Assembly (NCBI GenBank): GCA_051362555.1 | Contig: CM120647.1 | Location: 7,688,001 to 7,752,000, forward strand | Direction of reading: 5' to 3' | DNA: 64,000 nt | Origin: Lingula anatina | Lineage: Eukaryota; Animalia; Brachiopoda | Shown here: positions 7,962 through 35,362 of the stretch, one piece after another | How positions within the stretch are numbered: position 1 is the first letter of the stretch | Layout of the letters: the number at the start of each line of letters is the position of its first letter | Translations under genes and position numbers: made by a program | Notes under the pieces: generated by a model | What the model was told of the DNA's origin: nothing | The model's database searches: none | The model's input: the letters and a program-made list of their open reading frames with translations, nothing else

Positions 7962-9167
7962 ATGATCGAAGATGAACCAGACAACGTCGACTTTGGGGAC
8001 GGGGTCAAGGATTTCGACGACATCCTTGTGTTAATTGGCGAATTCGGAAAGTTCCAAAAATTAGTCTTCTTGTTACTCTCCATAGCAAGTATTCTACCAG
8101 CCATGGATTATGCTGCAGTTGTCTTTATAGAGGAGACTCCTGACTTCAGGTAGGTACATGTACGAAAGATGGGATTACTTGTAATTTCATAATGTGTACT
8201 CTGTGCTCTTTTGCATTATATCCATTCATTTCATTCACCTTGAGAGAGGGAGGGAGGTAGAGAGGGTACGAATAGAGATATTAACGTATTGTCAAAGTTT
8301 GAATTAGTTAAACCTTAATTTTGGTTGTGATTTTTTGTGTAGGCCTACATGCACGTTTATAACACACACCTCCCCCCCAAAAAAGAGAGATAGATAGATA
8401 TAGATAGATAGATAGATCACACTTCATAGGAACAAGTGTGCCTTATAAGTTATGAGCCTATAAATACCTCATCTGACAGAAATAAATAAAACCCATTATA
8501 AACTTGCACAGAATCCCAATGTGTATCTGTTGATGCATTTATTTGAAGGTGTAGACTCCCCGGAGATTTGAACGACTCTTACTCTCCAGGGATGGCACTG
8601 TACCTAAACACAAGTGATCACGTGACATCAAATGCAACGGCGCAATGTACACAACTCGATGTCGTTATCAATCACCAGGGGAATGTCAGCCAAGACGGGA
8701 CACACCCGAGCAAATGCACCGAATGGGTGTTTGATACTTCAGTAGTAAAGCATTCATACCCCATGCAGGTAAACTAATAACTAATAAGCAATCAAATAAC
8801 GGACAGTATGATGAATTATTATATCAAATTACAATAATCAAAATATTGACATTGATTGACTAAAAAATACATTGATGTTTTCTAATAACCCATACGAAAA
8901 AGTCCTATAGGATCCTATAAGATCCTATAGGATCATATAGGAAATTGGATCTTATAGGATCCTATAGGACTTTTTCGTAAGGGAAGAGCATGTACGAAGT
9001 GGTATACATGTATATATCTCATTTATCAGTTTATTGAAATATTACATATTACATATTATTGCAAATTGATTAATATACTACCTTAACAATTCTCTACTTG
9101 CCGCATAAATTACCAATGTCAAATTTTATAAAACAGCTTTAACAGTGGTAATTTCTAGATGCTTACA

Positions 9168-9210
<43 letters not shown>

Positions 9211-9824
9211 TAGTTCAAACTGGTCTGTGATAATTCCTGGATGCTCACGTTCTCTTACATCATGTACGTGTCGGGGACTTTGATTGGTGGTTTGGCGTTC
9301 GGTTTACTGTCAGACTGGTATGTATTATTTTATTAATCCATAAGATATAATTAATTCGTTTATTTCATTTTGAGTGTATTTTTGCCTATAAAATATTTTT
9401 CCGCTTCTGTAACTTGTATAAATGGCGAACCGTCCGTATCAAAGCAGAAGTTACTTTTCTCATCATTTGTCAAATCTACTTTTCTCTTCTCTAAATATTT
9501 AGTATTCACTTACCTGTACTCTTTTGTCTACAAACAAGCCTCCAAATGTGGCGGTGGATTGAGAAAAAAAACTCATCAAAAATACTATTCAACTTTTTAA
9601 AAGATTTAACCCGGGTACTTTCCTTTCAGGGCCGGCAGAAGGTTTTCTCTCCTGCTTGCCTTAGGGTTGAGTGGGTTCTTCGGATTAGGCTGGGTCTTTT
9701 CACCCACATATCCTTGTAGTATAGCTATACGGTTCATGTACGGAATGTTTACCAGCGAAATATTTACTCTCAGCACGACATTAGGTAACGACCATTTTTG
9801 TTATTATATAATAACGATAATATA

Positions 9825-9875
<51 letters not shown>

Positions 9876-12800
9876 TACTCTTTGCATGGTGCTTGCATTT
9901 GTTTTCAAAGTTGAAAAGAAACTAGCTAATGTTTTATATACTAGCAGTATTCACACCGAGCCACAAACAGCTATAATATGGTCTAACACGTGTGTTCACA
10001 TTAACGCATTTTTATTCTTTAAGCCCTGGAGCTTGTAGGGCCTCACAAACGCATGATAGCCGGAACAGCTGTGGGTATCGTCTCCACGGCGGGCGGAGTA
10101 GTGGTAACGGGAATAGCCTATTTTCTGCGAGACTGGCGCCATCTACAGTTATCAATATCTGCGCCGTATTTAGTATTTGCAGCGACTTTGTTTTGGTAAA
10201 CATTTTTATACTTTAAACATTGGACACATTAAAATTTAAATATGCTTTCATGAGAAAAGTTCCAGAATTAATTTTTCGATGAGTTTAATTTAACCATTTA
10301 TACGTCTGATAATAATTTAATGAATAGGCCTATATGAATATATATTAAATGTATTAAATAATTGGAAATTATTTATTATTTTTGTGGCTGTTGCTGTAAT
10401 TTATTTATTTATGAACATACTAATGTATTTAATATTATATAATGGAATGTATTGTAATGTATTGTAATGTAATGTAATTTGATTACTTTTATCAGTTATC
10501 ATTGTGATGATATAATCACGGACATAATGACGAATCTCTCATTATGTTCATGATATAATTAATAAATGTTAGAATTAAATTGCACATATCCACCTAACAG
10601 GCTCCTTCCTGAATCTCCACGATGGCTGCTAACGAAAGGACGTCACGAGGAAGCCGAGAAGATCCTGAGGCGTGCAGCGAAAATGAACGGCAAAGAATTC
10701 CCCAAGGGCCTTCTGACCAAGGTGGAAATAAACGAGCTACCTAGCACGAGTATCCGGGCTCTACTACACGCCCCAAAATTGATGTTTAGGATGCTGTTGT
10801 TGTATATTAATTGGTATGTATGTTTCGGATATCGAAACCGGTATACAGGGTACATCAATAGGCTCAAATAATAATAATAATAGATAGATAGATAGATAGA
10901 TAGATAACAAATAAAACAAATAAAAAATGATAACAAAGTTTTATGACAAAAGTTTCACAGGTACCTTTGCTAGTCGACCATGAAATTGTATTACTATCCA
11001 ACGTGTAGAAATTTCGCGCAGCCTTTGGAATTAGAATCGCCTAGGCTACTATCTATTTCATGAAAGTTATTCGGCTTCAGTTCTTATTCAAAATTTTGTG
11101 TGCAGGTTGTACTGGTACATGCTTGGCGCCAACAGTTACGTCAAAACCATCCCGGTGAACATTGTGCAAACTTAAAACTTCTTCACTAATCACTCTTTGT
11201 AAAGATAAGATAGATTAACTATCCACGGTACATTTTTCTCTTTTAGTATAATTTTTTCTTAAACACCTGTTTTGGTTGACTCCTCAAAAAGAGTTCACTA
11301 AAAAGCCTAACAAATTAGACATTTTTCCCATAATTTCATCATTTCTTTGAAATATTTCTTCATTTCTTACAGGATGGTACTCGATATGACACACTATGGG
11401 ATAAATCTCCATACGGGCAACATGGCGGGGAACATCTACCTGAACTTTTTACTCTACTCTCTCGTGGATTTCCCCGGATACGCCCTGTGTTTTACCATAG
11501 ACAGATTTGGTCGGAAGAAGATTTACACGCTGTGTTTAGTCACGGGCGGCCTGGCATGCCTTTCAACACTCTTCGTACATCTCTATGGAGAGGAAGGTAA
11601 AAATAATAAAAAAGGGAACATTTGAGACACGTTGGTGATAAATAAATTTTACATTAAAAACGCGCCTATAAATATCAAGCATGAAGTATAAAAAATATAA
11701 GAAGTGCCCAAGCTTTCCTTATTCTGATAGCACACAAGCCGAAAGCTCGGGGTCTTTTTATCTATCATTTTTTTATCTTTAAAAGATGCGTTCTTTATGT
11801 AATTTACGGATTTCTTATTCAAGATCTGTATAAGATCGATGTGATTATGATGAATCTTCAAAGTCACGCACGCATTTTGTGTAATATTTATTTTATGTTT
11901 ATTTTCCGTTACTGTTGCTTTCTTGTCATAACGTAGGGTTCTGCAGTATAAACATCAACAATAATGGGTCAGATCCGAATATTGCAATTATAACGAAAAA
12001 AATATGCGCGTCACTGGTGCAATTCAAATGTTCATTTTAAAGTGGACGTTATCTATCATGTAAAATCGATGTCGTCATTATTTTATGATTTTTGTGATTC
12101 TCCATCGACCTCCTATCCTAGACAAAACCCTGTATATTAAAGTATAGAGTGTCAGAAGGCGAATAAGTTTGTTTTTTTATTATTTTTTTTCCATAGAAAC
12201 TAATGTCTGTCGGTGTGATAGATCTACATTATATCGGATGGATAAAAAAAACGCAACGAATTTTAAAATGTAATAGTTAATAAATAAATAAATGAATAAA
12301 TATTCACTATAATTATTAAAAAATCAACAATCCAATTGTTACATCCGTCCATGGTCTTAATCCTGAAGTTTCTTTTCCGTTCTTTTACATGTATCTCGTT
12401 TTTTTATTGACTTGTTCAATTTTTTCCAGATGCTACTTATTCTTACTACGTCAAAATGGCGCTCTCTACAGTCGGGAAATTAGGAATCGCGGCAGCTTAC
12501 GGAATCAGTTACATATGGGGTGTTGAACTGTTCCCGACTGTGGTCCGTAACTTCAGTTTAGGTCTAGGGTCGGTGGCTTCCTGCGCGGGGGCTATTCTTA
12601 CACCAATAGTTGTCGTAAGTATTACTATTAATGAGAAAATTACTGTCCCTTGCTAAGGGAGGGGTGTTTGATTTCCCTAGAACTTCGATACTTTGCCCCG
12701 AAAGGTACGACTATTTTTAACTATTTTTAACTTTAAAAACATGATAAAATGTTCACGTGTAGAATACTGAAGAAATGGTGTGAGTATTAAGAAGAAAAAA

Positions 12801-13754
12801 ATGTCCAACCTTTAGCGCATAGGCCTATAATAAAGAATTGGTGAATTTATAATATTGCTCATTATGATAGTAATTAAATATGATAATAAAATAATGATGA
12901 ATATTGGTAAATGATTAAAAACGTGAATGAATATAATTTTAAAATAAATACATGAATAAGATTTAAAATAAATAGATAGATACAATGTACAAACAAAATG
13001 ATGAATTGGAATTTAACATATACTAAAATTTTAAAATTCAGAGAGAAGTCAAGGCAGACAGTATAGGAGAGGACACTCTGCCACTCGTGATATTCGGAGT
13101 GGCCGCCATATTTGGAGCCATATGTACGATACCCTTGCCAGAAACGACGAACCGAGACTTACCCGAAACTATAGAAGACGCGGAGAATTTTCAAAGGTAC
13201 ATTTCCGTTTATTAGTATTATTATTATTATCATTATTATTATTATTGTAAATGTAAACCAAACGCGTCTTTGAAAATTGGCTAACTATTTAAATGACTAA
13301 AATTAACTAATTTTAAAATGACTAACCAAATATTTATTATGTGGAAAAATATCAACACAGAAGCAATGTACATGTACATGTATGTTTTTTCGAGTAAAAA
13401 TGTTTTAAAAATTGGGGGAAAAATCCACTGTACATGTATACAAGGCATGACTGGATTTTGACCACAAGATCTGCACATAGCAGAGCTTGAGAACGTTTAA
13501 TTGATTAAAAGTCTATTTGTGCGTGCTTGTTTGCGCCCTCATTTATACAAGACCGTGTCCGTGCAAGAGCGGATGGGGGGGGGGGGGGGGGGGGGGGGTT
13601 TGGACTGACTAGCCTTAATTACATCATTACCATTTTTGATTCCAGACGCACAAAACGCAAACTCGATGAAAAAGAATACTACATTTCACCAACGATCGAA
13701 ATGACGGAGATGCCACGGAAAAACGTATCAGCCACATCGCGCTTATCTATATGA
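7962..13754 (+). CDS. SLC22-family organic cation transporter (Orct-like), 10 exons: 7962-8149, 8549-8768, 9214-9317, 9630-9784, 10024-10195, 10601-10813, 11373-11596, 12430-12614, 13042-13196, 13646-13754
   Basis: SLC22 signatures in consistent phase: [76 protein letters not shown]. All introns GT-AG. Confidence 0.92.
8888..8983. repeat. Near-perfect palindrome (hairpin MITE) in SLC22 intron 2
   Basis: TACGAAAAAGTCCTATAGGATCCTATAAGATCC is the reverse complement of GGATCTTATAGGATCCTATAGGACTTTTTCGTA. Confidence 0.8.
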
Positions 13755-14154
13755 TAACGAAAAACAATTTAAACCGAATAACGAAAACAGAAACCAAATA
13801 GAGCAATAGAAAACTTTTTTAGTATGTATGTATGTATGTATGTATGTATGTATTATTATTATTATTATTATTATTATTTTGATACTCATAAAGTTTGTCA
13901 GTAGGTTACATCAGAATACCCATGATTGTGAAAGGATAGGACATACAAGTACACATTAACAGCGGCTCTTCCGGGAACTTGGGTACATTGAAGGCAGCCT
14001 ACTGTAGAAAGACCTATTGGAATTTGAATCTTGAATCATCAAATGCAGCTGTGGTCTTTCGCTTTCTTAAAAAAAAGAGCATTTACTTAAATGTGTGGTA
14101 GGCGCATGTACACCTGTAATAAATAAACAGGGCGTATATAGATAGGGAAGAGGC

Positions 14155-17392: not shown

Positions 17393-20300
17393 ATGCCGGG
17401 AACGGCCAAGGTGAATCCCGATCTCCAGAAGGAGAGGAACAGAGCCACTTTTCCTGTCCATGTAATGACTTATGTATTAGATGGAGATCCTGAAAAAACG
17501 AAAAGGCGGAGATACGTAGGTGAGAGGCTAAATTTTATGTTATTTTGATGGATTTATAGGTGAGGGTTGGGGTTCAAAACTAATGGGAGGACTTTCGTAA
17601 TTGATGGACGAAAGGCCGTGGGAAACTTTTTGGTTTACGCCTCAGGTAATTACTCAAGTTGCTCCTCATCGACAGGTTATGTGGCAACATGTCTTTTTTT
17701 TTTCAAATGTAAACTGAAGAAAATGTGCAGTCTTAGTGTGGAAGATCGTGCCCTGACTTGGAGGGAATCCCTGACTTGTACCTAGTTTTTGACCTCGACC
17801 TTTGGTATGGAGGACGTGTTGTGTGATGAACATTGTCACTTAGAATTGAGGTCTCAAAATTAGGTCACAACTTTAAAAGGTCCGGGGGGGGGGGCACTCG
17901 ATCGTTTCCAGTTCTTCTGTTTGGATAGGCAGCTGAAAGGTTGCAGTAACCAGTGACACGCAGTTGAAAAATATTTGTTTGTGGAAGGGGGGGTGACTTT
18001 TTCCAGTTTTGTACAGTCAGAATAGGTAGATCACAATCCGCTAGGGGCGCTACAGTCGTAACTGTCCACGGGCAGTGAAGTGTAAAACTGAAGTCGGCCT
18101 GCTGACAGTTCGCCTATGGAACCCCTTTTTCAAATCTCTCTTTTAGCGCCGCGTAAAAAAACTAATACAAGCCATTAACTAAATAAGTTGTAAATCAAAG
18201 AGTAAAATCCGGTCACGTGATTTTCCCATGTTGCAGTCTTTGACAAGTTTCGGTTCTGCTTGTTTTAAGCTTTGCCTCTACAAAATGATAAAAAATTTCA
18301 GTTAAGTGCTGGTATCATCTTTTTGAAATTTATATCCAGCAAAGTTTATGAAATTTGCTATATTATGTAGAAAAATCATGAAATTTGAAGGTTGCGAAGT
18401 ATAGTTAATTTAATCCGCAATATTACATGATGTGAAAATTACCACAGGGAAATAGCTTTGCCCTGATTAGTCACAGGCTATGTGAGCCAGACAATAGTCT
18501 GAGCACACAAAGACACACAGGGTGCTCTGCTGCGCCTGAGTGATCACTGCTGGTCAGTGGGCACAGGTTTTGAGCTGAGAAGTGTGGACACTTTTGGTGG
18601 ATTTTTGCAGTTAAAAAACTTCAATATCTTTGTTGCTTGTAGGAATATTTAAAAAATTCCAAATGATTTCATCCGGTTTTTGCATTACCTTTCAGATGAT
18701 GTAAGTATTTTAATTTTCTGATCAGTTTGAAAATTTTTCTGATATACCTAGTCAGAATGATGTTGAGCATGAAAAATGAATTCAAGAGTCTTATTACATT
18801 AATTGGCATTAACAAGAAAGATAATAAAAGTTAAGATGTAACATATATCAGTATTTTATTAAAAAAAGGTGGGAAGTTAATTACTTGCAATATGGTAATT
18901 CATATAATTTCATAGATGTATAATAAATAAAAAAATCCAATAATGTAAACTGTTATGGAATAGCTATCTTTCTAAATCAATGATAAATTGCAAAAATACC
19001 AATCACAGTGCATTATTGCTCCTAGTTATTTATTGCCCTGAGCAAATATTTATCTTCCTTGGGTTAAAAAGTGGATACAAACAGATAACACTGGTGTGGT
19101 GAATCAGCATGTACATCCTTTTCTACCACTTGACCCTTGTGACATCCAATAAAACCAGCATAGTCGTATAAGCTCTGTCTGATCTGGGAGTTAAGAAAGG
19201 GGGGATATGGGGCATTCTTAACTTATTGTTGATATTTGTTGATTATTATAATTTATGTTCATAAATGTATTTTAATATCATGATTATTATAATTATGCAC
19301 AGTATAACTGTTGAATATTTAACTAATTAATTCATTTTTTTTCTAGACAATTTAGTGCATATACTTTGCAAAAATATTAATGAAATGTGATTGACTTTTT
19401 TAAATTTCATTTTCATATTTGTTTGTTAATTTGTTTATTTTAAATTTTCTTGAAATTTAGGTTCAGAGATTACAGTAATGTGTAATGCATTGCACATGTG
19501 TCACAGCACACCCATTGATGTGTGCCTATACTGTACTAGTAGTTGGTTTTTGGCAAACATTCAAAATTTGTTGCCCGATTTTCAATAGATCTCATCTTTT
19601 ATTTTTCAGAGAACCTTGTACTCAACGACCCTGTGTACAAACACAAACCAGTATGTTTTATGTCTCGCGGGGAAAGATACTCCCTGGGGATGAAGAAGGC
19701 GCTGCATGCTGTGAAAAAATTGAAGGAACTCAACCTGACGGACCCTGCTGATCAGTACTATTACAGATCGTGAGTGCTGGCATTTACTTTATATCTCTTT
19801 TCCTAGAGATTGGTTAACCCAGGAAACACAGAAATTTTCTTTGGCCTTGTGTTAAATATGGTATATTCGACTTCCACACAATCCCATTTTTTTCAAAATC
19901 ATATTGGAATTAATGGTAAAGGATAGTGTGTATGGTTTATTTATTTTAAAAAACATTATTATTGAACATTATTATTATATTTATCTTATCATGTCTAAAA
20001 GTTATTTTCAGTGAAAGCAAGTTAATTGATAAAACTAACTTAAGATACTAGTATGGTACATGTGACACTTTTATATATTTCATCTATATAAATTCTATCT
20101 ACTGCTGAAAATGGAAAATATTGAAAAGATGCCAGTCCCAAGCCCCAAATTATATCTGTTTATTAGGACATGACTTCATAGTTATGCTGATATCAACAAG
20201 TGACCCAGATAATATTCCAGTGACCGAGATGGAAATCTCTGTGACTTAGATAGAAATTCCCGTCTAAGGGAGTAGGTCATTGCATATAAGCCTTCTACTG

Positions 20301-23300
20301 TACATTTTAATTTTTAAAATTCATAGGCAGTTTAATATATCAAAATAAGTTCAAATTTTGCATGGCCTGATGAAACTGCTTTCATTAACTAAATCTGATA
20401 TTCTTAAAAGATGTTCAAGGTGACTGTTGAGGTGTGAAGAAATTGACGTTTAACCCGTGAAAGTCTGCTCTACATCACTTTATTTCCCCCTCAGTTTTTT
20501 TAATGAAGAATTGTCATCCCTTTATTTATTACATATGCCCACACGTACAGGAGCACACACACACACATACATACATATAAAGATCTGGTTTAATTTTTAT
20601 ATCATTTCAACGCATATAAATCCAGGTTCACAATGCCACACGAGAATTCCCCAATTGCCCTCCAAGATGACATGTTCATTCCCATAATCTCCACACAGAC
20701 CACCGATGAGCAAAAAGCAAAATGGCTGACACTGGCAAAGAGTCTCCAGATTATTGGCACATATGCACAGACAGAGTTGGGACATGGTATATTAACTTAT
20801 CAGTAGATTCTTTTTAGGCATTTGCATGATATTTTTGGTAATAAGAGAATTTTTTGTGGGGGGGGGGGGGGGGGTAAGGGAGTTTGCTTTGGACATTGCG
20901 CAATATGTACAGGTCTTAATATTATTGGTACTTTCATTTCCAACACTTGCCTCAGTTGCTTTTTACAAGTAACTAACAGGTGTGGTTTAAAATTAGAAAA
21001 GGGGCAAGCTTTACTGACATAAAACTCCTGGACCTTGACCATCAAAGGAAAAAAATAAGGAGAGCTAAAAATATTTTTAAAAAAATTTGGAAATCCTGAC
21101 AGAGCATCGAGCCTTGGCAAATTATTTATTTATTTATTTATTTATTGTGTCAAATAACACGTTTGAAGAAATTGGAGGAGAGGCTTTTTAAGTTTGAAAA
21201 ACATATATTTAAGCAAGTAGTAACGGGTATGTGATCAGAGAGTCTGAATGGATTTATATAACTAGGTTTTATTTTATTTAAATTCTTAATATTCAACTAA
21301 AACTGTTAAGTTGCAGATTGGTATATGACCTGTTTTGATGACTTAAAGTGATAATAACTCTTCTTTTCAGCCAAAAAATGAATTTTCCTGGAGTAAACAA
21401 CAATTTTCCCATACTTACCAATGGTTAATGAATCCATTTTTACATTCAAAGTTAGTCCCTGGTTTTTTTCTAAAAAGTTTGGTTTTTTGTTAAAATCTCT
21501 TAAGAGATTTTAGCAGAGTATAGCCATCAGTGGAGGTCACGTGGTCTAAAGACAAGCTCAGATATCAGAATAATAGCTATAACTGCCGTTTTTGTGGTAA
21601 AACAGAATATATTATATTTCTATGAGTTATTCACAATGTTTTTATTGTGAAATATAGATCTCATACGAAGAGTTATTATCCCTTTTAAGTAGCTGTTCTG
21701 AATTCCCTTTAATTAGTACCACCAGCGTGTACGCTGGCGGTACTCATGGTTTTAGTCCCGACCCGTCTCGTCCGGCTCCGCCGGCTCCGCCGGCTCCGTT
21801 GGCTCCGCCGGCTCCGTAAGCTCCGCCGGCTCCGCGTACTGGCGCCGGATACAAGTCACCGTTACCGCTTCTCCTCCTAGACCACAAGGACCCCTGTCCC
21901 CATCTCTTGGATTTAGGTCACATATAACCTCAACTTGAACCCCCAGGTTTTTTTGTCTCAGTCGGTACATTAACCTGGGCGTGACGCTCGTTGAAATGCA
22001 CCCTTGTCAAAATTTTTGAAAATTCAATGCCATTTATCTACCCTACGGAAGGAATTATGGGAAAAATTTCTACAGACGGCTTTCCAAAAGTCATATGTGT
22101 AGATTTCAAATATGCCCTTGGATTTGACCTTTGACCTTTATTTCAAGGTCAAACGGGCCAAAATTTTCAAAAAAATGAAATTTTTTACAAAAAAAATATT
22201 ATTTGCGCTGTTATTCAGACACTACACAGACTTAACCAATAATATTATTGGAAAGTGTTACCCTTTGGGTCTTCTTTGATCTCCGTGAATTTGGGGTCAA
22301 TCGGTGCATTTTCACGGGAGAAGCGGCCATAAGATACTGAAACTGAAAACTGTCTCTAATTCGGGAACCGTTAATGCTAGCGACCTGTTCTTTTTTGCAT
22401 TTTATAGAGCATGTAAAGCCCAACATTAAAAAGGGTCTCCGTTTTTTTGTATTTCATACGGTTTTCGTGTTATGCTGTATTAAAAAGTACATTGTGGTGG
22501 CACATTATTGTAACTCAGAATTGTAACATTATATCTCCAAAACTGGCAGAGATAGGTCAATAGTTACTATAAAAGTTGAATAGGATGTCACATACTGGCA
22601 ATTTAACAGTGACCATAAAATTGACCTTTGACCTACTTTTCATCATGAATTGAACTTTGCAAATTTTCGTTCCCTTTTATCTCCAAAACTGGCAGAGATA
22701 GGTTCATAGTTACTATTGAACTTGAATAGGAAGTCATATACTGGCAATTTACTGTGACCTTAAATTTGACCTTTGACCTACTTTTTACCATGAACTGAAC
22801 TTTGCAAATTTTCATTCCCTTTTATCTCCAAAACTGGCAGAGATAGGTCCATAGTTACTATTGAACTTGAATAGGAAGTAATACACTAGCAATCTGTGAC
22901 TTTGAAATTGACCTTTGACCTACTTTTTATAATGAACTGCTTTTTGCATGTTTTCAGGCCTTTAAATCTGCAAAATTGGCAAAGAAATACCCATGGTTGC
23001 TATTGAAATTGAATAGAAATTCATATACTATGATATTGAAATTGACCTTTGACCTACTTTTTCACCATGAACTGAGCTTTGCATATTTTCTTGCCTCTCA
23101 TATCTTTAAAACTAGCAGAGATGTGCCCCTTGTTGCCCCTAGGTTTTCTCTTTTGTCAGCATATATGCACCATTGACAACACTTTTCAAGGAAAACCAAT
23201 AGGCCTTTTGTCTAGAGAATACAGGAGTGATCAAGGGTAGGAAAATGCAAGTCAATTCGAAAATCTGCTTGATTATACCATTTTTAGTTATATTTTTTTG

Positions 23301-26300
23301 CATATTTTGAGAACTCTTATTGATTGCATCTTATAGAGCTTGTCAAGCACAAGACTGGTGATGGTGTCCCTTTTTGGAGGGGTGGGGGGGTCCATACAAA
23401 TGCGCTTACTCCAGCTGGTGGTACAATATCCGGAGGCGGTATCGCCTCTCTGATCCTCTAGTTAAAGACTGATTTTTGACTGAGCAACACCAATTCTGTA
23501 GAAGTAGGCTCACAGCAGGTCCTACCTAAAACATTTCATGATAATTTCACCCTTAAGATTTTTTTACGTAACCTCAGTGCAGTGGCTCTACAGACACTGT
23601 TTTTTTCCTTTTTTTACCTCCGCCATGGAAGTTATGTTTTCGCCCCTGTTTGTCTATCTTTCTGTCTGTTTTTCATCAACATAACTCAAAAAGTTATGGA
23701 CCAATTTAGATGAAATTTTCAGGGTAGGTCAGAAATGGGTTAACTTAGAAGTGATTAGTTTTTGGTGGTGGTCTGGATCAATAATCAATCAGTAATAAAA
23801 AAAATAATAAGTTATGGACCTATTTTGATGAAATTTTCAGGATCTGTCAGAAGTGGGCCAAGGAACAGATGATTAGTTTTTGATGATGATCAGGATCAAT
23901 AATCAATCAAAAATCAATAATAATAAAAAACCGCTGCCGTGGCGGAGGTCTGCGCTCTCGGAGTGCTCTTCTAGTTTTTTTTTTTTTTTTTTTCTGCATT
24001 AAGTGACCTCTAAACCCCTGGTTACAAGGCCAACAAGCCATTTCTACCATGATGTACAACCCTGTGGATAACTGTGTTGGGAATCTGCCAGTATTTCATG
24101 GTTTGACAATTAACAACTCGTTAGAAATCTGCATAAAATACCCTCTAGCGTAGGTATGGAGATCAGGGAATTCTCTGAAATTCCGTTTTTCCAGCCAGAA
24201 GAGTGTTCTGCAATGTGATGAGAGATCTCTTTAACATTTCAAGGCCATTCGAATGTACTGTATAGTAATGACTTGAATCTTTTTAAATGGGGAAATTTAA
24301 TCTGACAGGAACATAATTTTGGATTCACTAAAAATTCTATTCTGAATAAATGTTTTGTGATTTCACTGTATGGAATAGAATTATAGGGTAACCTGTTTTA
24401 AATTTTGTTGCTGCCACTTAATAGAAATGATATTATTTTCAGAATTTATCACTTAAAAAATAAACAGTATCAGTAAAGCTCACAATTTCCCCCCCCTGAC
24501 AAGGTCAAATCATTACCATGATACTTAAAGCGCATTCGGAAAGGCAAAAAAAAAAAAACTAACAGATCGTCAAATCAAATATGGCTGACCCACTTGAATG
24601 CATGTTGCATAACCCCTGCAGGGAATCTGATCAGTGTATAATTGGGAATTAAGCAACAGATTTTTAGTGGGTAACCATGTTTTAACCGTGGATCTATTAG
24701 TCAGCTGTTCTGAATGTACTATAATTTGTCTTCAGCATCTACCAAGCTCATGAGAATTCCCCCCTTGCCATTCACGAAGGAGTGTCAATCCCCTGTGTGC
24801 GCTCTCTAGGCACAGACTAAAAGGAAAAAAACATGGCTGCCAAAGATGGAAAACTATCAAATCATATTCACGTATAATCAGACCGAGATGGGACATGGTA
24901 CATTCAATGTTTCCGATATTTGTCTTGTGATTTTTATGTGGCGGTTGATTATGGGAGTTTCTTTGATTGCAGTTATAGTTTTAATTCACATTAAAATGAT
25001 AATTATTGAATAAGGAAACAATAATTGTTTGGGAATTATGGGTTTCAGCATCCAGTTTCAAATTCTTTGGTGACATGTTCCCAATATTTAAATTGTTAAA
25101 ATGCAATTATAATCACTGTATTTCTCATTGAGTTTGTGCTTGTAAATGTTGTGTTTGTCTTACAGCATGCTAGGCTACTGACCCCCCTTGATTGAGAGCT
25201 TGTTTTAGCTCTCATGTTCGCTACACCTAAAGCTTAATACATCTAGATTTACTTTGATTGAACTGGGCCATCAAAAATCGATGTCAATATCGAGCTGAGA
25301 ATGCAGGCCGAAAAGTTAAAAAAAGAAATTATTCTTGTTAATGCTTATATACATTGAGGGAAGGAGTGTGCTTTCTTATCCACAGAGGTGCAATGCCCCA
25401 TGAAAGTTCTCCAATAGGCCTTCACACAACTATGTTTATCCCAGCAATTGCAGGACAGGGCAGTGACAAACAGAGGAGAAAATGGCTGCCATTATGTGAA
25501 AGTTACAGAATAGTTGGAACCTATGCTCAGACTGAGGTGGGGCATGGTAAGGAAATTGGGAACCCAGTCCCATAAATTGGGATAATTGGTATCAATAGAA
25601 AGGCTGGAAAGGATAGTAGAATCTGAGATGGCAGTCAGAAACAGGAGTGCTAGTCTAGTATGAATATTGGGATTATTGATGTAAGGGGGTGGTAAGGAAG
25701 TTAAAAACTGACATCAATGTAGTCAGGTAAAGGGTATTAGAAATGGAGTTTTACAGGCAGGCTTTTATTGTTTTATACGTAGGATGGAATCAGAGGGCTA
25801 AATAACTGGCATTTTATCATTTTCAATTATCATTTCTCTGAAAAGCATTTTGTATGTATTATTGTTGGACCCATTTTGCTTTGTTTGTTATAGATTATAA
25901 AAATAAGAAAAGTCAAATTTGAAATGAGGCATGTGATTGGGAGTGGTCTTCTAGAGGATAGCTGTTTAGTTTTTCAGCTTGGTTACCATTTAATGAAGTA
26001 AAAGTTTAAAATATTCAGGAAATGAGCCCAAAATAGTCTATATTAATTAGTGGTGTGTGAAATTGATCGCAATGACGGAAAATAATACCCAATAAATAAT
26101 ATAAGTTGTAGACTATAATGTTACCAAATTGCAGCTGATCCCCACCTTTTGTTACATAAATATGGATGTTTATATAATAACAAATACAATATAATCTGTA
26201 GACTATAATATAAACAACTTACAGCTGATCCCAACTTTATTTTAAATAAATATGTATGTTTATTTTATTTATTTTTTTTTTTTTAAATAAAGACTGAGCT

Positions 26301-28424
26301 TTAAATATACATGCACAAACACTTCGAAATATCAAGCAGGAATCTGTTTTGATGATCAAAAAATGTCTGTAATAATGTTTAGAATATTACCTGCATCATA
26401 ATGTGTCTCATTTACATTGGCAGAACTTGATCATTAGCAGTCTGTGTTAAGCATTGTTAAGGTGTATAATGGCACTGATATATTCAAAGGGACCTCTCTG
26501 ACTTTTCAATGTTTCGTGCTGGTATTTTTTATGTAACAACAGCTCTTTTCATTCATGTCACTAACATGATCCCTTGATTATAATTTCATGTCTGGAAAGG
26601 TCTATACCTGACTAAGTGAATCAAAAAGCTTACTTATTATTCTGGTCCTTTAGAATACTGTTAGCCTTTGCCAAAAAACTCCTTATGTACTACATTATAT
26701 ATATTCTTTTGGATAACAGATAAATCTCTAGTGTTATGTGACTAAATTATTTGATATTTACACACACCATCTTGCGGATGATGTCATAATTACAATTTTG
26801 GGGTACAAATTGAAAAATTGGTTTTTCAAATGTCTCCATTACCTGAGCACCCACGAACACCATTTTAACGCCAATTTAATGACACCATTTAGTATCCTAA
26901 AACCATGCCATTATTTTATCTTAAAAGTGTTAGTTCAGATTTTATTATTGATAAAATAAAGTGATGCCTTTGTTTAATAAAGATCTGTAAAGAGGGACTC
27001 ATGAATCCATAACAAAAACATTTAAATAAAATTGACAATGTGATTGTAGCCCCTACACTTGTGGTCAGTTATGTCAACTACACTTCACAAGGCCTTTAAA
27101 AGCATTTGTAGTACCTTACAGAAAACTATGTGTTTATATTAAAAAAAAACTTTTACATGCCTGTCACAATAAGAAGTTTAACTATAAGTTTAACTATAAG
27201 TATATTTGAAGTGAAAAAAAAACCTTAACTTTTTGTACTAGGACATGGTAAAATAAACACATTTGATAAAGAATTCAAATCATTTTTTTACAGTGTTTTT
27301 TTTCTTCCCAAAGAAATTGCACTAGTAAAACCTGAGGAGTGAAAAATTCACCTGAGAGCAAAGCCAAAGTTTGCCTCAATGTATTGGAAACATTTGATAT
27401 GCATTAGTAAAATCATCTTTTCTCCAGTTTTTCGGCTCCCCATGAAAACTCTCCTTTGGCCCTTCAATATGGCATGTTTATTCCAATGCTTATGGCCCAG
27501 TGCAGTGAGAAACAGGGAGAAAAATGGCTGCCATTGTGTGAGAATTTGACTGTTATTGGGACCTATGCTCAAACTGAGTTGGGTCATGGTAAGCTGAAAT
27601 TAAGAAAAGCTTCATCTTGCTTTCATTGCACATGTGCGTGATTATTGTCAATCAGGAAAGAATTTGATTGCAAAAAAATTGGCAATTTTTCCATAATTTG
27701 AGATTTCCCCATTGCTTTATTGGATGTAGTCAATGATATTAAATACAAAACAAATTTAAGCTGAGATTTATAAAAAAAATTGTTAATATTTGTGATCACT
27801 GGCTGTTGCTTTAAAGAAATGTTTATTTTAATCCTTGTTGTCCCCAAAGACCAAAGGTATGTCGCACATGTACCACAACAAGTAAGAATATGACTGGGTT
27901 TGTTTAATATGCCTGTCACAAAAATGTGAAAATATTTTTCATATTTAATTTTTTAATGATTAATAAAGGAAATATAATTAAAAAATGAAAATGTAATAAA
28001 TAAACTGCTTGCAATGCTTTACATTATATTATCTGCTTACGCAGTGGTTCCTCTGTCACAGGTGCTTTTTCACATAAATTTTGTACTCCAGGATCAGTAT
28101 AATATGAAAAACACAAACACAAATTTGAAAATTATTTAAATTTATTTTCCATGAAGCTTTGTATGCAAAAGCAAGTTCCGTTTGCCTATGCTCTCTCCAT
28201 TTATGGAGTCTGAAATGCTGCATAGCATCCATTCTTTCACTGATCACATGCCTCATATCAAAACTGTCAATATTAGTAAATTTTATTTAAATGCTTGCAA
28301 AAATAACTGAAAGACTTTGACTTTTTTTGGCAGTTTCCAGTGGAAAAAATGTTTCACAGAGATGTAGCCTTGCATTAAACTGACAGCTTGGCTTATCTGT
28401 GACTGCTTCTGCTTTTTTTTTCTT

Positions 28425-28492
<68 letters not shown>

Positions 28493-31162
28493 TTTGGTAT
28501 ATTGTTTTTTCTTGTTATGGTCATTTTTGGTAGCATTTTGAGGGATGCTTAATTTTTTTGGGGGGGGGGTGGGAAAGGGGGTTGATAGCTTCTACAGTCC
28601 AATTTTAGAAAAAAATATTAAGTTGTCATTTTTGGGGTTGTGTCTATTTTATTTTTCTTAATGGCTTTGAATTATTAAGACCGGTCAGTTTTACCTTACC
28701 AGTGCATAAGATTTTGATTAATATATCAGTAACATTGCTTTATGGTGTGGGAAATAAGCAAAAGTTTTAAGTAGCAGTTATTGAAACCAAAATATAATGT
28801 TTATTCAGAAAAACAAAACATAATGTTATTTAAGAATATTTGAATTCACATATATAATGGTAATGTTTGTCAATGTTTTATAGAATGGGATAAGTTTCAA
28901 GTGTGGACAATTTTAATGAAAAGATAATGTAATAATAAAGTAAAAACAAAAATGCTTTTGTAATGATATGTTATCTCTTTTCATTAATTAATTAATGAAA
29001 TGGTTTTTAATTGAAAAATTAATTAATTTGCTGTTACTTTAATGTGAAATCCTGACCACTTCCAGGTACATTTGTGAGGGGTCTGGAAACTACTGCCACC
29101 TATGATCCCCAAACCGAGCAGTTTATTATCAATAGCCCTACTCTGACTTCTACCAAATGGTGGCCTGGAAATTGTAAGATTTGTTATTTTAATGAATATT
29201 TATTTATTTATTTAGTTATTGCCAAGAATTATTGTAAGGCAGCTTTAAACTAGATGATTTTGAGTGCCTTTTTGAAAAATACAGCCCTGGATTTTTATTT
29301 CAAGTAGCCAAATCACTACTTTTTCATCTTTTTTTCAACAAATTGATAAAAACAAGTCACATCAACCTTGTTTTGTCAAGCCAGTTTAAGTCAGTTTAAG
29401 CATTTGACTAAATCGGTGAGTGTTAGCACTTACCTAGAATTTAATAACTAACTTCTTCGGTCTTTTCTTTTTTCATTTTAAATTTATTTATGTTAATTCA
29501 TTTTAATTATTATTTTGATTATTTATTTATTAAGTGGGAAAAACCACCAACCATGCCGTAGTCTTGGCCCAACTGTATACGGGTGGCAAGTGTCATGGTA
29601 TTCATGCCTTCATTGTCCAACACAGAGACATGGAAACCCACCAGCCATTGCCAGGTAATGTGAGCTATTATACTTAAATGTCATGGTATCCATGCCTTCA
29701 TTGTCTAACACAGGGACATGGAAACCCACCGGCCATTGCCAGGTACAGTGCGATATTACAAGTAAATGTCATGGTATCCATGCCTTCATTGTCTAACATA
29801 GGGACATGGAAACCCACAAGCCATTGCCAGGTACTATGTGATATTATACATAAATGTCATGGTATCCATGCCTTCATTGTCCAACACACACAGTGATATG
29901 GAAACCCACCAGCCATTGCCAGGTACTATGTGATATTATATATAAACGTCATGGTATCTATGCCTTCATTGTCCAACATAAGGACATGGAAGCCCAACAG
30001 CCATTGCCAATTACTGTATGGCATTATGTAAACCAAAATGCTGGCATGGGATTGAAGCTAATAAACTTGTGGTCAACTATACCAGTTTTCATGTTCAGGA
30101 TAATATTTCATCCTCAGGTAATATACCAAAAAATAAAATGATCATGATTATCATATCAGGGATAGAGGAGAGAGATATCAGCTCCAAGTTTAACATCTAT
30201 CCCAAGTTTGGCTGTTATTATTATTGTTGTTGTTGCTGTTGTTGTTGTTATTATTATTATTATGTTTTACATTTCAGGCGTTGAGGTGGGAGATATTGGT
30301 CCTAAGTTTGGCTATGAGGCAGTGGACAACGGTTTCTTACGTTATCACAATGTCCGCATACCTCGGGACAACATGCTGATGAGATATTCTGAGGTAACGT
30401 ATGTCAATCATATATACGTACTTATGGCAGTAATATTTATTCAAAGGGAAAGTGCATTAAGGCATACTACTTGTTGATTAAATTTATTTAATTAATAATA
30501 GTTTTAATGAAAGATGGTTAGTTAATTAAGTTTTTATATTATAATCTTAGTTTGGCAGTTCAGTTCAATATTAAAATTTGAGTATTAAAATAGATAATAA
30601 TGTTTTGAGGTTGGTTTTAATGAAATAAATTTAAAAGTGAGTCTTACCGGATTTGTTATTTTTCCCTTAAGGTAACCAAAGATGGTCGCTACATAAGAAA
30701 GGCCAATGAGAAGCTGACTTATGGCACCATGGTTTTTGTACGATCTGCAATTGTAAGTACTGCAGCAAAGAACCTGGGGGAGGCCTGCACGATTGCTATA
30801 AGATACAGTGCAGTGCGGAGACAGTCGGAGATGAAGCCCGGGTAAGGCTGTGATGCATTCTGGGATGGAAAAATTGAAGATGGCTGGTCATTAGGACCTG
30901 TGGGCCTCAGAGTACGACTAATTTGAAATCAAAACTTATTGAACAGTCAAAAAGTCAAGTCTGTGTATTGATGATGTTAATTGAATTTTAGTTTTTTTTT
31001 TATGAAATTCATTCAGTTTTCAGGTTCAGTGACAATTGGCATGGGTCTTTCAACTTTGGATTATCACTGATGGTCCATTATATGTTAGATATTAAATAAT
31101 TTACATGGGGCATTACTATTTTTACTCAGTGAACCTGAATTTCATTGGCAGAATAAACATAA

Positions 31163-31201
<39 letters not shown>

Positions 31202-34200
31202 TTTATTATTTTTGAATTAAGAGAACCAGGTATTGGACTACCAAACTATTATAATTATTTTTATTATTATTATTATTTTTATTATTTTTGAATTCAGAGA
31301 ACCAGAGCCACAGGTATTGGACTACCAAACCCAGCAACACAAGTTATTTCCCTTGCTGGCCACCAGCTATGCCTACTGGTTTGCTGGTCGTTCCATGAGG
31401 GAGACCTACCTGGATATTCAGGGCCAGATCATGGCTGGGGATTTTAAGAGGTTACCAGAGGTATGTGAGACTGGGTTCCCATACCCAGATAGATCCATCT
31501 GAATCGGTCTAACTCCCTGCGGAGTCTCACTAAATTGCCATCAACTAAACTGGCTTAAATGTCTGTCACGCCTACCGAATCAGCTATGGTAAAGATAGTT
31601 ACCCCCTAACAGCTTTACTTGGCGTGACAGACATTTAAGCCGGTTATGTTGATAGCAATTAAGTGAGACTCCCCAGAGAGATAGATCGATCCAAATATCT
31701 GTGGGAATGGTCCCTTAACCATTTGACATGCTCCAGTGATTTAGTGTGTAATCAGTGACATGGTTATTCTCAGTTGTATTCAAACCAAAGTGTTATATTT
31801 ATTATAGTGTTTGAAATTCATGCTTCCTGTGTGCCATCTTTATTGCCACCCCTTAATAAAAATAATTAAACAAATAAAAGAAAGAAGGGGAGAGTAAAGG
31901 ATTGTGTATTTAACTGCTGCATGGTTCATATTTGTGAAACATGTTTTTCATTATCTCTTGTACAAATGATAGAAAAAAAATTCCGAAGTTTCTAAAGGGA
32001 TGAAATGAAGGGTAAAAACATCCTGCCTCATCGATGAAAAATGCATTAAAAAAAAAAAATTTTTCTTTTTTTTACTGTCTTTCACATTAATCCTTCAAGT
32101 AGTCAATTTTTTACATATTATCTGTATTAGTCTGGTATTTATTTTTCTTTACAGCTTCATGCTCTGTCAGCAGGACTGAAGGCTATGAGCACCTGGGCAA
32201 CAAATGAAGGTATCGAGACCTGTCGACTGTCGTGCGGTGGCCATGGCTATTCGCATGCCAGTGGACTGCCCAAGATCTATGTGGATGCAACGCCAGCGTG
32301 TACCTACGAGGGAGAGAATACGGTGATGATGCTACAGACAGCAAGGTAATAGGCAGTGGCAGATTGAGGGCGTCTTCAGATTTTCAAATTTACATTGATG
32401 GGTAACTGATGCTTCTGTCGGAAGATGGTCATAAATAGAGGATGGATCAACAAAAATAATTCAAAGGACGGTCAGAAAATATCTCTGGGTCTGTCTCTGA
32501 TAGAAATACTATACAACACCATAAAGAAATATAGCACACTCAGACTGTTAATTTTACAATTTATTGTGACGGGTTAAAACTTTCCCCAGAGAGCCATCCA
32601 GCCATCCTTTGGATAGCCATTAGCATCAATAGAAAGCCTTAATTTTGAAAGACAGCTGCTCAGCATACAAACTTTTTTGGGATGAAATCCCTGTTAATTG
32701 ATGACCAAATTACAGATTAATATTTTGCACTTTGTGTACCCCTGTTTCAGGTATAAATTTGGTGATTTGTAAAAACAGTGTATAATCAGCAATGTAAGAA
32801 TAAAAACAATTGAGTATATTTCTTTTAACTCTTTAATGAAGGCCTGCAGACATACTGGGCAGGGAAAGGACCTGTAATTAGCTCTGACTGTTAAATTATT
32901 ACTATATTATATCAAATTTTAAATTGAACTGTTTTGAATGTATTGCTTCAGATATTTAATGAAAGCGTGTGGACAAGCAGCCCAGGGGAATGAGTTGCCA
33001 GGTTTTGTGGCTTACCTTAATCAGAAAGGAGTGGACAGGTGCATGATTGGGGATGACCTCAGTTTGAACAGTCTGGTCTCTGCATATCAACACAGGGCTA
33101 GAAGGTATGATATGTTTTAGGTGTCCTGTCTGGGATTTTCAGGCCAAAACAGTCACTTTCCCTTGGATAAAAGCAATTTTCTAACCTGTTTTTGCTCAAC
33201 TTATCCCTTCAGTACACTCAGTTTCCCTTTTTTTATTTGTATAAATTCTTAATGCCTTGCCAGATATTTGGACTGCTATTATATCTACCAGTGCAATCAA
33301 TTGAGGAGGAAATTACCAAGCCAGGTATTTCGATTTGAAGGGTTTTAAGTTTTAAGGGTCTGTTATATATCATCCTTGATTACTCTTTGTTCAACTCCTT
33401 CAACCTGTACTGTAAATTGCAACTTATCTACTCATTGCCTATCTACATCATTGAACTTCCTGTTTTACATCTGTATATTTGCCAGTGTTGCTGTCTAAAT
33501 TCCTATTTGTGTTCAGGTTAATTGGTAAAGCTGCCCTGCAAATGAAGGCCCACATGGAAAGAGGCCAGCCCCAGGAGGTGGCCTGGAACTTGACCTCTGT
33601 CCAGTTAGTCCACTGTGCCAAGGTAAGGAATTGAAACGACCTGTCCATCTAGTTAAAATAGGCTTCTGTCCTCTGCAATCAATTTTTTCAAGGCCTATGT
33701 ATGCCTCCTGTAATTGGTGACCTATTGTAGTGTTGACCTTTTCCCCTAGGCTATTGCCTACTGTAATTGATGACCTAATTTTGTGTTGACCTATCTTTCC
33801 AGGCCCATGCGCATTGTAACTGGTACCCTTCTTTTGTGTTGACAAATTTTCCATTCCCAAGTCCATTGTAGCTGGTAAACAAAATTGGGTTTATCTTTTT
33901 TTCCTAAGCCCAATTGGGTTTATCTTTTTTTCCTAAGCCCATGACCACTTTTATCTGTGACCTTATTTTATGTTGACCTATTTTTCCAGGCCAATAGTCA
34001 GTAAAATAGGTGACCTTATTTTATGTTGACCTATTTTTCCAGGCCCATGTCCAGTGCTATGTGTTGAAGAACTTTGTAGATTCCATTGAACAATATGGCC
34101 ACCATGAGGATGTTGCCAAGGTGCTGACTCAGCTGTGTCAGCTGTTTGCTGTGGATGGTATCTTGAATAATGCTGGAGACTATTTACAGGTAGGAATGCT

Positions 34201-34468
34201 GTGGAAAACATGACATTGTATCTGGCTGTTAAGTGGTTGTGAGTTTGTGTGAGAGAGAGAGAGAGTTGGTGTGTGTGTGAGATAGAGAGAGAGAGAGAGA
34301 GAAAGAAAGAAAGAGAGAGGGAGAGAGAAAAGAGAGAGAGAGAGTGTGTGTGTGAAAGAGAGAGGAAGAAGATAGGGGAGAGAGTGTTCGTGTAGAAGAG
34401 AGAGAGGAGATGGAATGGGAGATGAGAGAGAAAGTGTGTTAGAGAAACAAATGGAGTGTGTGACAACC

Positions 34469-34520
<52 letters not shown>

Positions 34521-35362
34521 GTTTAGTGTGTATGTGTGTGTAAACAGATAGTGGGGATGTAGATGAGAGATACATAGAAGAGAAAGACGAGAAAGCATGT
34601 TTATGTGTAGAATGTAAGAGAGAGTATAACTCTTTGATAACAATAAGATCAAAATCTTTTGGGTAAAGCTTTGAACATCTTTTGAACATTTACAAAGTAA
34701 AATATCAGCACTGCATGACCTCAGTCTATTTCATTCATAGGGTGGCTTCATGTCATATGACCAACTGGACAATATGACCGCCAAATTGCTGGACCTTTTG
34801 GCCGCCATCAGGCCAAACGCCGTGGCTCTGGTAGATGCGTTTGACTTCAGCGATCACCTCCTTCAGAGTGTGCTGGGACGCTATGATGGAAACGTCTATG
34901 AAAATATGCTAGAATGGGCCAAGTCTTCCCCACTGAATGACACACAGGTATGTTGATATAACGCCAGCCCTAAGTTTCAGAGGTCACGTAGAAAAATCTC
35001 TATACTCAGTTTGCCTGTTCCATAGATCGAGAGTCTTCCAGATTTGGGCATTGTATTTGATTTCAGTATGGGTTTTTGTACTTAGCACTCCCCCTCACAC
35101 ACACAAAAAAAAAGAGCTGCAAACTTTTGTCACTTAATTTTTCTGATTTTAATTATCAATTTATTATGTGTGTATTTCATTTTGAATATAATCATTTAGT
35201 TCCTTTGTTACTTCTTCCTGTTCATGCATTATTTATATGATGTTTTATGTACGTATATTATTTGTCCACTAGTCACTTTTAATTATTTTTTTTCAGGTTC
35301 ATGATTCATACTACCAGTACATGCAGCCATTCCTGAAGGAAATGCACAAGTCAAAGTTGTAA
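17393..35362 (+). CDS. ACOX1: Peroxisomal acyl-CoA oxidase 1. Exons: 17393-17519, 19610-19769, [one alternative exon 3], 29066-29173, 29535-29654, 30278-30393, 30672-30841, 31298-31460, 32155-32345, 32952-33104, 33517-33622, 34043-34189, 34741-34947, 35297-35362
   Basis: [90 protein letters not shown] (catalytic Glu), [24 protein letters not shown]; C-terminal PTS1 SKL-stop. 14-exon layout with consistent phases. Confidence 0.97.
20626..20786 (+). CDS. ACOX1: ACOX1 alternative exon 3a (161 nt, intact)
   Basis: tccag|G...GGACATG|gtat; encodes (S)[53 protein letters not shown](G); phase 2 in, phase 1 out, fitting exons 2 and 4. Confidence 0.88.
21225..21253 (+). promoter_or_regulatory. Putative splicing selector sequence for exon 3a (pairs with 28227-28253)
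   Basis: GGGTATGTGATCAG-AGAGTCT-GAATGGAT can form 14 contiguous bp (2 G-U) with CTGATCACATGCCT (28240-28253) and 8 Watson-Crick bp with ATCCATTC (28227-28234). Confidence 0.65.
21343..21688. mobile_element. MITE family B (~345 bp, TTAA-flanked, Kolobok-like); other copies at 40980-41290 (partial), 42614-42962, 47470-47813, 58440-58700
   Basis: TIR TTAAAG(G/T)GATAATAACTCTTC / GAAGAGTTATTATCCCTTTAA and near-identical internal sequence (ATCTCTTAAGAGATTTT, CAGGGACTAACTTTGAATG). Confidence 0.85.
21712..23463 (+). mobile_element. Non-autonomous Helentron/DINE-1-like element (HINE) with ~145-bp central tandem repeats
   Basis: 5' subTIR GTACCACCAGC in a hairpin, CCGGCTCCG microsatellite, repeats ATCTCCAAAACTGGCAGAGATAGG at ~22533, 22679, 22824, 3' subTIR GCTGGTGGTAC (23414), stem-loop GAGGCG..CGCCTC, CTAGTT end. 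Confidence 0.75.
23611..23976 (+). mobile_element. Short HINE/DINE-like non-autonomous Helentron
   Basis: TTTTTACCTCCGCCATGG start, (TCTG)-like microsatellite, two internal repeats, CCGTGGCGGAGGT subTIR, GCGCTC..GAGTGC hairpin, CTAGTTT end. Confidence 0.75.
24736..24897 (+). pseudogene. ACOX1: ACOX1 exon 3b pseudo-exon (162 nt; in-frame TAA and +1 frameshift)
   Basis: ttcag|C...GGACATG|gtac; reads [27 protein letters not shown] (TAA 24818-24820), then after one extra base [22 protein letters not shown](G). Splice dinucleotides remain. Confidence 0.85.
24935..24957 (+). promoter_or_regulatory. Putative degenerate selector sequence for pseudo-exon 3b
   Basis: TATGTGGCGGTTGATTATGGGAG pairs with 28234-28257 using several G-U pairs, 3 mismatches and a 1-nt bulge. 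Confidence 0.4.
25386..25546 (+). CDS. ACOX1: ACOX1 alternative exon 3c (161 nt, intact)
   Basis: cacag|A...GGGCATG|gtaag; encodes [53 protein letters not shown](G). Confidence 0.92.
25918..25946 (+). promoter_or_regulatory. Putative splicing selector sequence for exon 3c (pairs with 28229-28262)
   Basis: TTTGAAATGAGGCATGTGATTGG pairs with CTGATCACATGCCTCATATCAAA (22 of 23 positions, including an exact 14-nt reverse complement); GAGTGG pairs with CCATTC. Confidence 0.7.
27428..27588 (+). CDS. ACOX1: ACOX1 alternative exon 3d (161 nt, intact)
   Basis: tccag|T...GGTCATG|gtaag; encodes [53 protein letters not shown](G). Confidence 0.9.
28227..28262 (+). promoter_or_regulatory. Putative splicing docking site downstream of the ACOX1 exon-3 cluster
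   Basis: ATCCATTCTTTCACTGATCACATGCCTCATATCAAA is the common complement of three intronic segments, each downstream of a different exon-3 copy. Confidence 0.7.
29588..30030 (+). repeat. Tandem array (~88-92 bp x5) derived from the 3' part of ACOX1 exon 5 plus its donor site
   Basis: Unit AAATGTCATGGTATCCATGCCTTCATTGTC...GAAACCCACCAGCCATTGCCAG|GTA; GT at 29655 (true), 29743, 29831, 29923; lost in the fifth copy. Confidence 0.92.
33690..34042 (+). repeat. Degenerate ~60-bp tandem copies of the ACOX1 exon 12 acceptor region
   Basis: Recurrent GTTGACCTAT(C/T)TTTCCAGGCC(C/A) matching the true acceptor at 34025-34048. Confidence 0.75.
34240..34600. repeat. (AG)n/(TG)n compound microsatellite
   Basis: Directly visible. 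Confidence 0.95.

Follow-up and report, generated by a model that had tools for sequence, protein, structure and literature searches.

The window analysed here, a 64-kilobase (kb) stretch of DNA of the brachiopod Lingula anatina, was found to contain a complete ACOX1 gene of 14 exons at 17393-35362 on the + strand, in which exon 3 is present in four copies (A to D). Three of the copies (A, C and D) were found to be intact and one (B) broken, and a full enzyme is encoded only by messages with a single intact copy. Competing pairing between introns likely aids the choice of copy, and the three enzymes so formed are predicted to differ in fatty-acid preference; this reading as a whole is held with reasonable, but far from complete, confidence. 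The exon layout, the frame arithmetic, the selection on A, C and D, the decay of B and the complementarity are seen directly in the sequence. The host gene is identified from its sequence as ACOX1 with a catalytic Glu and a peroxisomal signal. The open reading frame with a single A, C or D contained 664 amino acids with C-terminal SKL (the peroxisomal signal), the translation of exon 9 was 100% identical to the RefSeq Lingula anatina ACOX1 protein, the RefSeq form with copy A matched the rat ACOX1 structure 1is2 at E 1e-240, and the catalytic Glu was found to be retained as Lingula Glu427, aligned with rodent Glu421.

Copy A was found at 20626-20786 (161 nucleotides, nt) with the weakest splice sites among the intact copies, followed by copy B at 24736-24897 (162 nt), copy C at 25386-25546 (161 nt) and copy D at 27428-27588 (161 nt), nearest to exon 4, all on the + strand. 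The initial annotation had listed four exons, each ending in Q-T-E-x-G-H/G ahead of GT, and all four were verified, with AG and GT at their borders. Its claim of identical phases holds for A, C and D, whereas copy B contains one extra base and stops in all three frames. As had also been claimed, 161 nt is not a multiple of 3 and the inclusion of no copy or of two copies shifts the frame: a full open reading frame was obtained from 3/16 copy combinations, and the other 13/16 were found to stop at codon 109-190 of about 665. Each of the intact copies was found to contain stops in both off-frames, and nonsense-mediated decay can therefore clear every wrong message. An upper limit of three copies set by frame arithmetic was considered and dismissed, because a message with four copies would likewise be terminated by the off-frame stops. 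Copies A, C and D matched Pfam Acyl-CoA_ox_N with scores of 45-56 bits (cut-off 25), and the first 27 codons of copy B matched it weakly. No fifth copy was found in the window with a profile built from the four copies.

The copies were found to be identical at 88-110 of 161 nt in pairwise comparison (55-68% DNA identity), and the intact peptides at 30-32 of 53 residues; 28 of the 53 columns vary among the Lingula copies. The flanking 38 nt of the copies contained only 10-18 positions in common, so the copies are taken as old duplicates and not as products of mis-assembly, the explanation that the initial annotation had named as able to overturn its proposal. The introns between the copies were 3949, 488 and 1881 nt in length with ordinary GT-AG sites, and no U12-type donor was found against the standard U12 consensus. 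Steric hindrance and U2/U12 incompatibility were ruled out by these intron lengths (488-3949 nt) and by the ordinary donors. Both belong to the mechanisms of mutually exclusive splicing catalogued in the available part of PMC6071210.

Against 221 distinct non-Lingula exon-3 peptides, copies A, C and D were found to retain all of the 14 columns conserved at >=90%, whereas copy B was broken at 7/14. One of the seven adjoins the length break of B and six lie away from it, two of these in the G-T-Y-A-Q-T-E motif. The ratio of nonsynonymous to synonymous differences per site (pN/pS) was 0.31 for A-C, 0.32 for A-D and 0.57 for C-D, and every bootstrap range stayed under 1; in the pairs including A, synonymous sites were close to saturation. 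The further concern that the other copies might show dN/dS near 1 is thus not borne out among the intact copies. The branch of copy B was 1.16 in length against 0.24-0.38 for the others, i.e. 3-5 times longer. These patterns indicate that A, C and D are under purifying selection and that B is a decayed pseudo-exon, and the splice-encoded panel that had been proposed keeps three usable variants and loses the fourth. The replacement of LH by LQ in two copies is real, in A and D, and is a tolerated variant found in 5/221 of the other exon-3 peptides.

Three members were found in the Lingula ACOX1 protein cluster of RefSeq, whose isoform models are usually based on transcript alignments. XP_013401428 (isoform X1) contained copy C with no difference across the 51 residues covered, and XP_013401429 (isoform X2) contained copy D with one difference across the 38 residues covered. 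The two models share a scaffold, and 4/494 of their residues in exons 4-13 depart from the window (counted for XP_013401428), so that C and D are corroborated in a second haplotype or individual. XP_013413464, on another scaffold, contained exons 1-2, copy A (2/53 differences) and exon 4. C, D and A are each used by a RefSeq model, and more than one copy may therefore be spliced in. In exon 7 of XP_013413464 seven changes were found, including Phe286 to Thr (Thr in 0/195 homologues), and this protein is possibly a specialised paralogue.

The introns of the cassette contained a candidate docking site and two candidate partners, all on the + strand. The docking site was found at 28222-28261, in the last cassette intron, which separates D from exon 4. 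Candidate selector A was found at 21225-21257, 439 nt past the donor of A, with 14 contiguous pairs (12 Watson-Crick and 2 G-U), and candidate selector C at 25919-25945, 373 nt past the donor of C, with 21/22 nucleotides paired and 17 pairs contiguous, including 2 G-U. The core at 28233-28253 was common to both selectors, and the four non-Watson-Crick pairs of the two core helices were all G-U. The duplex of selector A with the docking site was -34.4 kcal/mol (net -14.9 after local opening) and that of selector C was -32.2 kcal/mol (net -21.9). In a whole-intron scan with an extension cost, both ranked as the best two across 10 cassette intron pairs. Their joint score of -16.9 was reached by 0/395 background window draws (mean -10.3, standard deviation 1.1), by 0/210 shuffles and by 0/158 random docking regions, and the antisense strand gave -8.5. 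With the docking site fixed, a choice made post hoc, 0/1000 controls matched each selector. No selector was found after B, where 867/1000 controls were as good, and a look-alike at about 24936-24953 was rejected as no better than chance. The core is not a dispersed repeat: at <=3 mismatches, the 64 kb contained one further dock-like match and two further partner-like matches. No upstream docking site of the Dscam exon 6 type, lying ahead of the cluster and pairing with selectors ahead of each exon, was found (13/20 and 20/20 shuffles as good), and the best duplexes of intron 2 with the cassette introns were only -9.4 to -11.2. The layout is regarded as a statistically supported candidate switch; it is a new observation for ACOX1, missed by the initial annotation.

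In the proposed mechanism, pairing of selector A with the docking site would loop out B, C and D and join A to exon 4, and pairing of selector C would loop out D and join C to exon 4. With neither selector paired, D, as the nearest copy, would be used, requiring no selector. Both selectors would require 28233-28253, so that one pairing could form at a time. Messages with none, several, or B alone would meet an early stop and be removed by nonsense-mediated decay.

Other intron duplexes were also noted. The strongest intron-intron duplex was found between 25557-25575, just past the donor of C, and 31461-31490, at the start of intron 8, where a dispersed palindromic repeat has its border. This duplex was treated as chance. 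The donor region of exon 2 (19770-19788) and a site in intron 4 (29414-29433) form a 19-pair helix of -28.2 kcal/mol. Both stretches look self-complementary by eye, so that the donor of exon 2 may be covered by a local hairpin; the match may also be due to chance. The inverted repeats listed, 25 of 478, were mostly simple repeats.

Several observations weigh against the three-way switch. Single duplexes were modest, with 22/395 and 15/395 draws as good; an unrelated duplex tops the 120 intron pairs of the gene; and the docking pairing was found post hoc among some 15 tries. A docking scan of 250-nt flanks found none (5-20 of 20 shuffles as good), which is explained by the selectors lying 373 and 439 nt from their donors. 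A word scan gave one weak lead (6/100 shuffles, best of 9 tests), which on inspection was the pairing of 28222-28261 with 21225-21257 and 25919-25945. A whole-intron scan with lax loop costs gave very long duplexes with 81/512 controls as good. The pairing leaves unexplained how upstream copies would be skipped when C or D is chosen; the weak splice sites of A together with decay would be the likely means. On the side of the annotation, XP_013401428 and XP_013401429 begin within exon 3 and are without exons 1-2, and XP_013413464 differs from the window at 23/488 residues (4.7%) in exons 4-13 against 4/494 for the C model (Fisher p 1.4e-4), so that copy A may be documented solely in a paralogue or a divergent haplotype.

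The intron complementarity could be incidental to a real three-way cassette, with splice-site strength and protein factors choosing the copy, as has been suggested for the two human exons, and decay clearing the errors. This is considered unlikely, yet it is the most probable of the alternatives: the 120 intron pairs of the gene include other duplexes as strong (-18.3 and -16.2), the docking scan was post hoc, and decay alone is able to clear every wrong combination. According to the available part of PMC5224494, the human exons 3a and 3b moreover are responsive to U2AF, and their branch points and pyrimidine tracts are not alike. Incidental pairing is opposed by the presence of two strong duplexes on one site, in the expected places, in sense only and with none after the dead copy B, by the three joint controls without a single equal (0/395, 0/210 and 0/158), and by a core that is not a dispersed repeat. 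It is rather improbable, somewhat more so than incidental pairing, that C and D are the sole alternatives and that A, with exons 1-2, derives from a paralogue or haplotype, the window being a natural or assembly chimera. The separate scaffold of the RefSeq A model, its 4.7% divergence in the 3′ body and the lack of exons 1-2 in the C and D models all speak for a chimera, but the window is continuous without N, contains no second ACOX1 body in 64 kb, and bears a candidate selector in the intron after A for the docking site past D. Since the post-A selector matches the post-D docking site, A would be tied to the same pre-mRNA as D. The divergence of XP_013413464 in its 5′ part and 3′ body was also not significantly different (2/149 against 23/488, p 0.09).

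The state of the single copies admits two further readings. Copy B, in which AG and GT and the two ends of the peptide motif are preserved and the length is altered only once, could be a poison exon lowering output through decay, or could be intact in other alleles. The six conserved columns changed away from the break, the two of them in G-T-Y-A-Q-T-E, the long branch and the lack of a selector downstream make this improbable. It is very improbable that a single copy is used and that the rest are decaying leftovers or assembly duplicates. The decay of B and the uncommon LQ of A and D would fit such a history, against which stand low amino-acid change at near-saturated synonymous sites, the retention of all 14 conserved columns in A, C and D, the unrelated flanks, and the presence of all three copies in RefSeq proteins. 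The reading with three live copies and a competing intron pairing is preferred over these alternatives.

With regard to enzyme function, the available parts of PMC11178532 state that human ACOX1a peaks at C10 and handles or prefers dicarboxylyl-CoA, and that human ACOX1b peaks at C16 and is the sole form handling C24. In the available part of PMC9741552, five predicted flavin adenine dinucleotide (FAD) contacts in exon 3 are common to both human forms. The Lingula copies were found to retain the FAD-binding end of exon 3. In 6/7 lineages the alternative copies were found to vary at columns 11, 14 and 15, which surround rodent Leu102-His103, and in 7/7 at column 39. An exchange of the 53 residues would leave the FAD-binding end in place and alter the stretch next to and including the L-H motif, like the exchange between human ACOX1a and ACOX1b, and by analogy with the human isoforms only, the Lingula isoforms are predicted to differ in acyl-CoA preference. 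No list of pocket residues was found in the accessible portions of PMC8354476, PMC12334608 and PMC5986272.

The origin of the copies was assessed with a tree of 56 hand-picked rows of 286 proteins over 53 columns, most fish and tetrapod rows being left out. The Lingula copies were scattered among spiralian sequences without support and formed a clade in 0% of 200 bootstrap trees. In approximately unbiased (AU) tests over these 53 columns, a Lingula clade was not rejected (p 0.19 with B and 0.12 without B), nor was the joining of any Lingula copy to vertebrate 3II (p 0.29-0.34). For the order of duplication, (A,B),(C,D) was best and the other two trees were not rejected. The initial annotation had taken HE(N/S)SP, present in all four copies, as a sign of lineage-specific duplication; the motif was also found in 41/283 non-Lingula proteins, oysters, scallops, limpets and Owenia being among the carriers, and the argument fails. 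What survives of the proposed independent or extended expansion of the vertebrate exon is the same exon, with the same boundaries, in an invertebrate host. Rare residues common to intact Lingula pairs numbered 0, 2 and 2, compared with 0.54 on average for other spiralians, too few to serve as a sign of origin within Lingula. A homologue search with copy D alone gave 2 candidates, neither significant, and 1518 matches were obtained when 1.84 billion representatives were searched with a profile. No other brachiopod copy was found, and the 149 newly fetched proteins were identical to any copy at <=34/53 residues. Independent expansion in Lingula is likely by analogy with other lineages.

A wider reading is offered tentatively, at somewhat less than even expectation. 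Exon 3 may be a recurrent duplication hot spot across Bilateria, spanning chordates (three copies in lampreys), echinoderms, hemichordates, molluscs, annelids and brachiopods. In Lingula one arm of an intron stem would have travelled with each duplication, giving rise outside arthropods to a competing-RNA switch of the insect type by which peroxisomal chain-length specificity would be tuned across three enzymes, the selector being lost when its exon died.

The two-exon vertebrate ACOX1 cassette is textbook knowledge, and the cassette alone is modest news, as its convergent invertebrate origin is in print and the C and D isoforms are already annotated. The locus is a compact natural test case, with three live copies, one dead copy and a predicted docking site whose selectors follow just those two copies (A and C) for which a selector is required. 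If the switch is true, competing-RNA control of exon choice would extend to a brachiopod metabolic gene, with a bearing on the proposal, in the available part of PMC6071210, that tandem duplication itself creates such switches. Together with the sets from lampreys, an annelid and a hemichordate, the three Lingula variants form a panel for identifying the exon-3 residues that set acyl-chain preference.

The remaining exons, all on the + strand, complete the gene model. The coding part of exon 1, from the ATG, was found at 17393-17519 (0/42 residues differ from XP_013413464), followed by constitutive exon 2 at 19610-19769, upstream of the cassette and placed by gene model and RefSeq comparison, and by constitutive exon 4 at 29066-29173, downstream of it. 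Exons 5-7 were found at 29535-29654, 30278-30393 and 30672-30841, exons 8-10 at 31298-31460, 32155-32345 and 32952-33104, and exons 11-14 at 33517-33622, 34043-34189, 34741-34947 and 35297-35362. The 3′ end of exon 5, including its donor, contained a tandem repeat of 88 base pairs (bp) in 4.7 copies at 29591-30009, which brings three additional, frame-shifting GT donors (+88, +176 and +268 nt). For exons 8 and 12, the acceptor regions were partly duplicated locally (31171-31330 and 33717-34056); small duplications seem to arise readily at the exon borders of this gene. Exon 12 contained Tyr572, where Phe was found in 194/195 homologues and in the RefSeq Lingula models; the residue reflects either an allele private to this DNA or an erroneous base. 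At 21342-21694, 85 nt past selector A, lies a dispersed element of about 350 bp, of which the window contains several copies, in either orientation. Tandem arrays with a period of 160-161 bp were found at 36861-38705, directly past the gene; the exon-3 profile does not match them, and the likeness of the period to the exon length is coincidental. A multi-exon gene on the same strand lies upstream at about 8000-13760 and presumably is of the SLC22 transporter type, judged from its motif by eye.

Among known systems, the vertebrate exons 3I/3II (ACOX1a/ACOX1b) are the nearest. That the Lingula exon is the same one, as the initial annotation had held, was confirmed by the human exon coordinates (PMC8373072), which span 161 nt with the same peptide ends, and by matching boundaries in the alignment (1is2, 7q84). 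Lingula resembles the vertebrates in gene, exon length, boundaries and FAD-binding end, and differs in having three intact copies and a pseudo-exon instead of two copies, and in its candidate docking/selector layout. The available part of PMC8373072 has the ACOX1 exon-3 event arising three times, in chordates, echinoderms and molluscs, the last two being invertebrate lineages with the same exon convergently duplicated, as in Lingula; its passage on them is without brachiopods, copy number or splicing mechanism. The same source supposes <=2 exons in internal mutually exclusive clusters of vertebrates.

Isoform pairs and sets were also found in other lineages. Petromyzon (P0238/P0283/P0284) and Lethenteron (P0280/P0282/P0285) each contained three ACOX1 isoforms, with 26-29 differences over the two lampreys and 0 outside exon 3; no statement on a three-exon lamprey ACOX1 was found in the accessible literature passages. 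The two isoforms of Owenia (P0230/P0278) contained 12 differences and those of Glandiceps (P0188/P0273) contained 7, all inside exon 3. Each of these pairs groups within its own lineage in the tree, and the lineages go beyond the three in print. In a bivalve-like pair (P0009/P0155) 13/14 differences were inside exon 3, and the Gymnothorax eel model P0177 contained two near-identical 3I-like stretches and 3II, the second 3I-like stretch being a recent extra copy or an assembly duplicate. No literature was found on mutually exclusive acyl-CoA oxidase exons of Lingula, subscription papers being mostly outside coverage, and none on a docking/selector layout for ACOX1, the one ACOX1 match tying the human pair to U2AF. 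In C. elegans, ACOX-1.1 to 1.x likewise provide several ACOX1-type active sites of varied chain-length preference in one animal, by whole-gene duplication as against exon choice in Lingula (available part of PMC5986272).

The proposed splicing control has its counterpart in insects. Systems with a downstream docking site, reportedly described by Yang et al. in 2011, contain in the 14-3-3zeta type one site past the last variable exon and selectors past the earlier ones, with overlapping pairing. The Lingula layout is alike, and in both the last variable exon needs no selector. One site past D was found to be complementary to sites after each of the earlier functional copies (A and C), and the pairings overlap (28233-28253) and are stronger than chance, as judged post hoc. 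Further members, according to the accessible parts of PMC6071210, PMC4691838 and PMC11802352, which also cover insect 14-3-3zeta exon 5, are Mhc, MRP1 and Dscam exons 4/9. Unlike these insect systems, the candidate in Lingula is hosted by a brachiopod metabolic gene and is predicted from complementarity, and the length of its variable exon also permits decay as a back-up.

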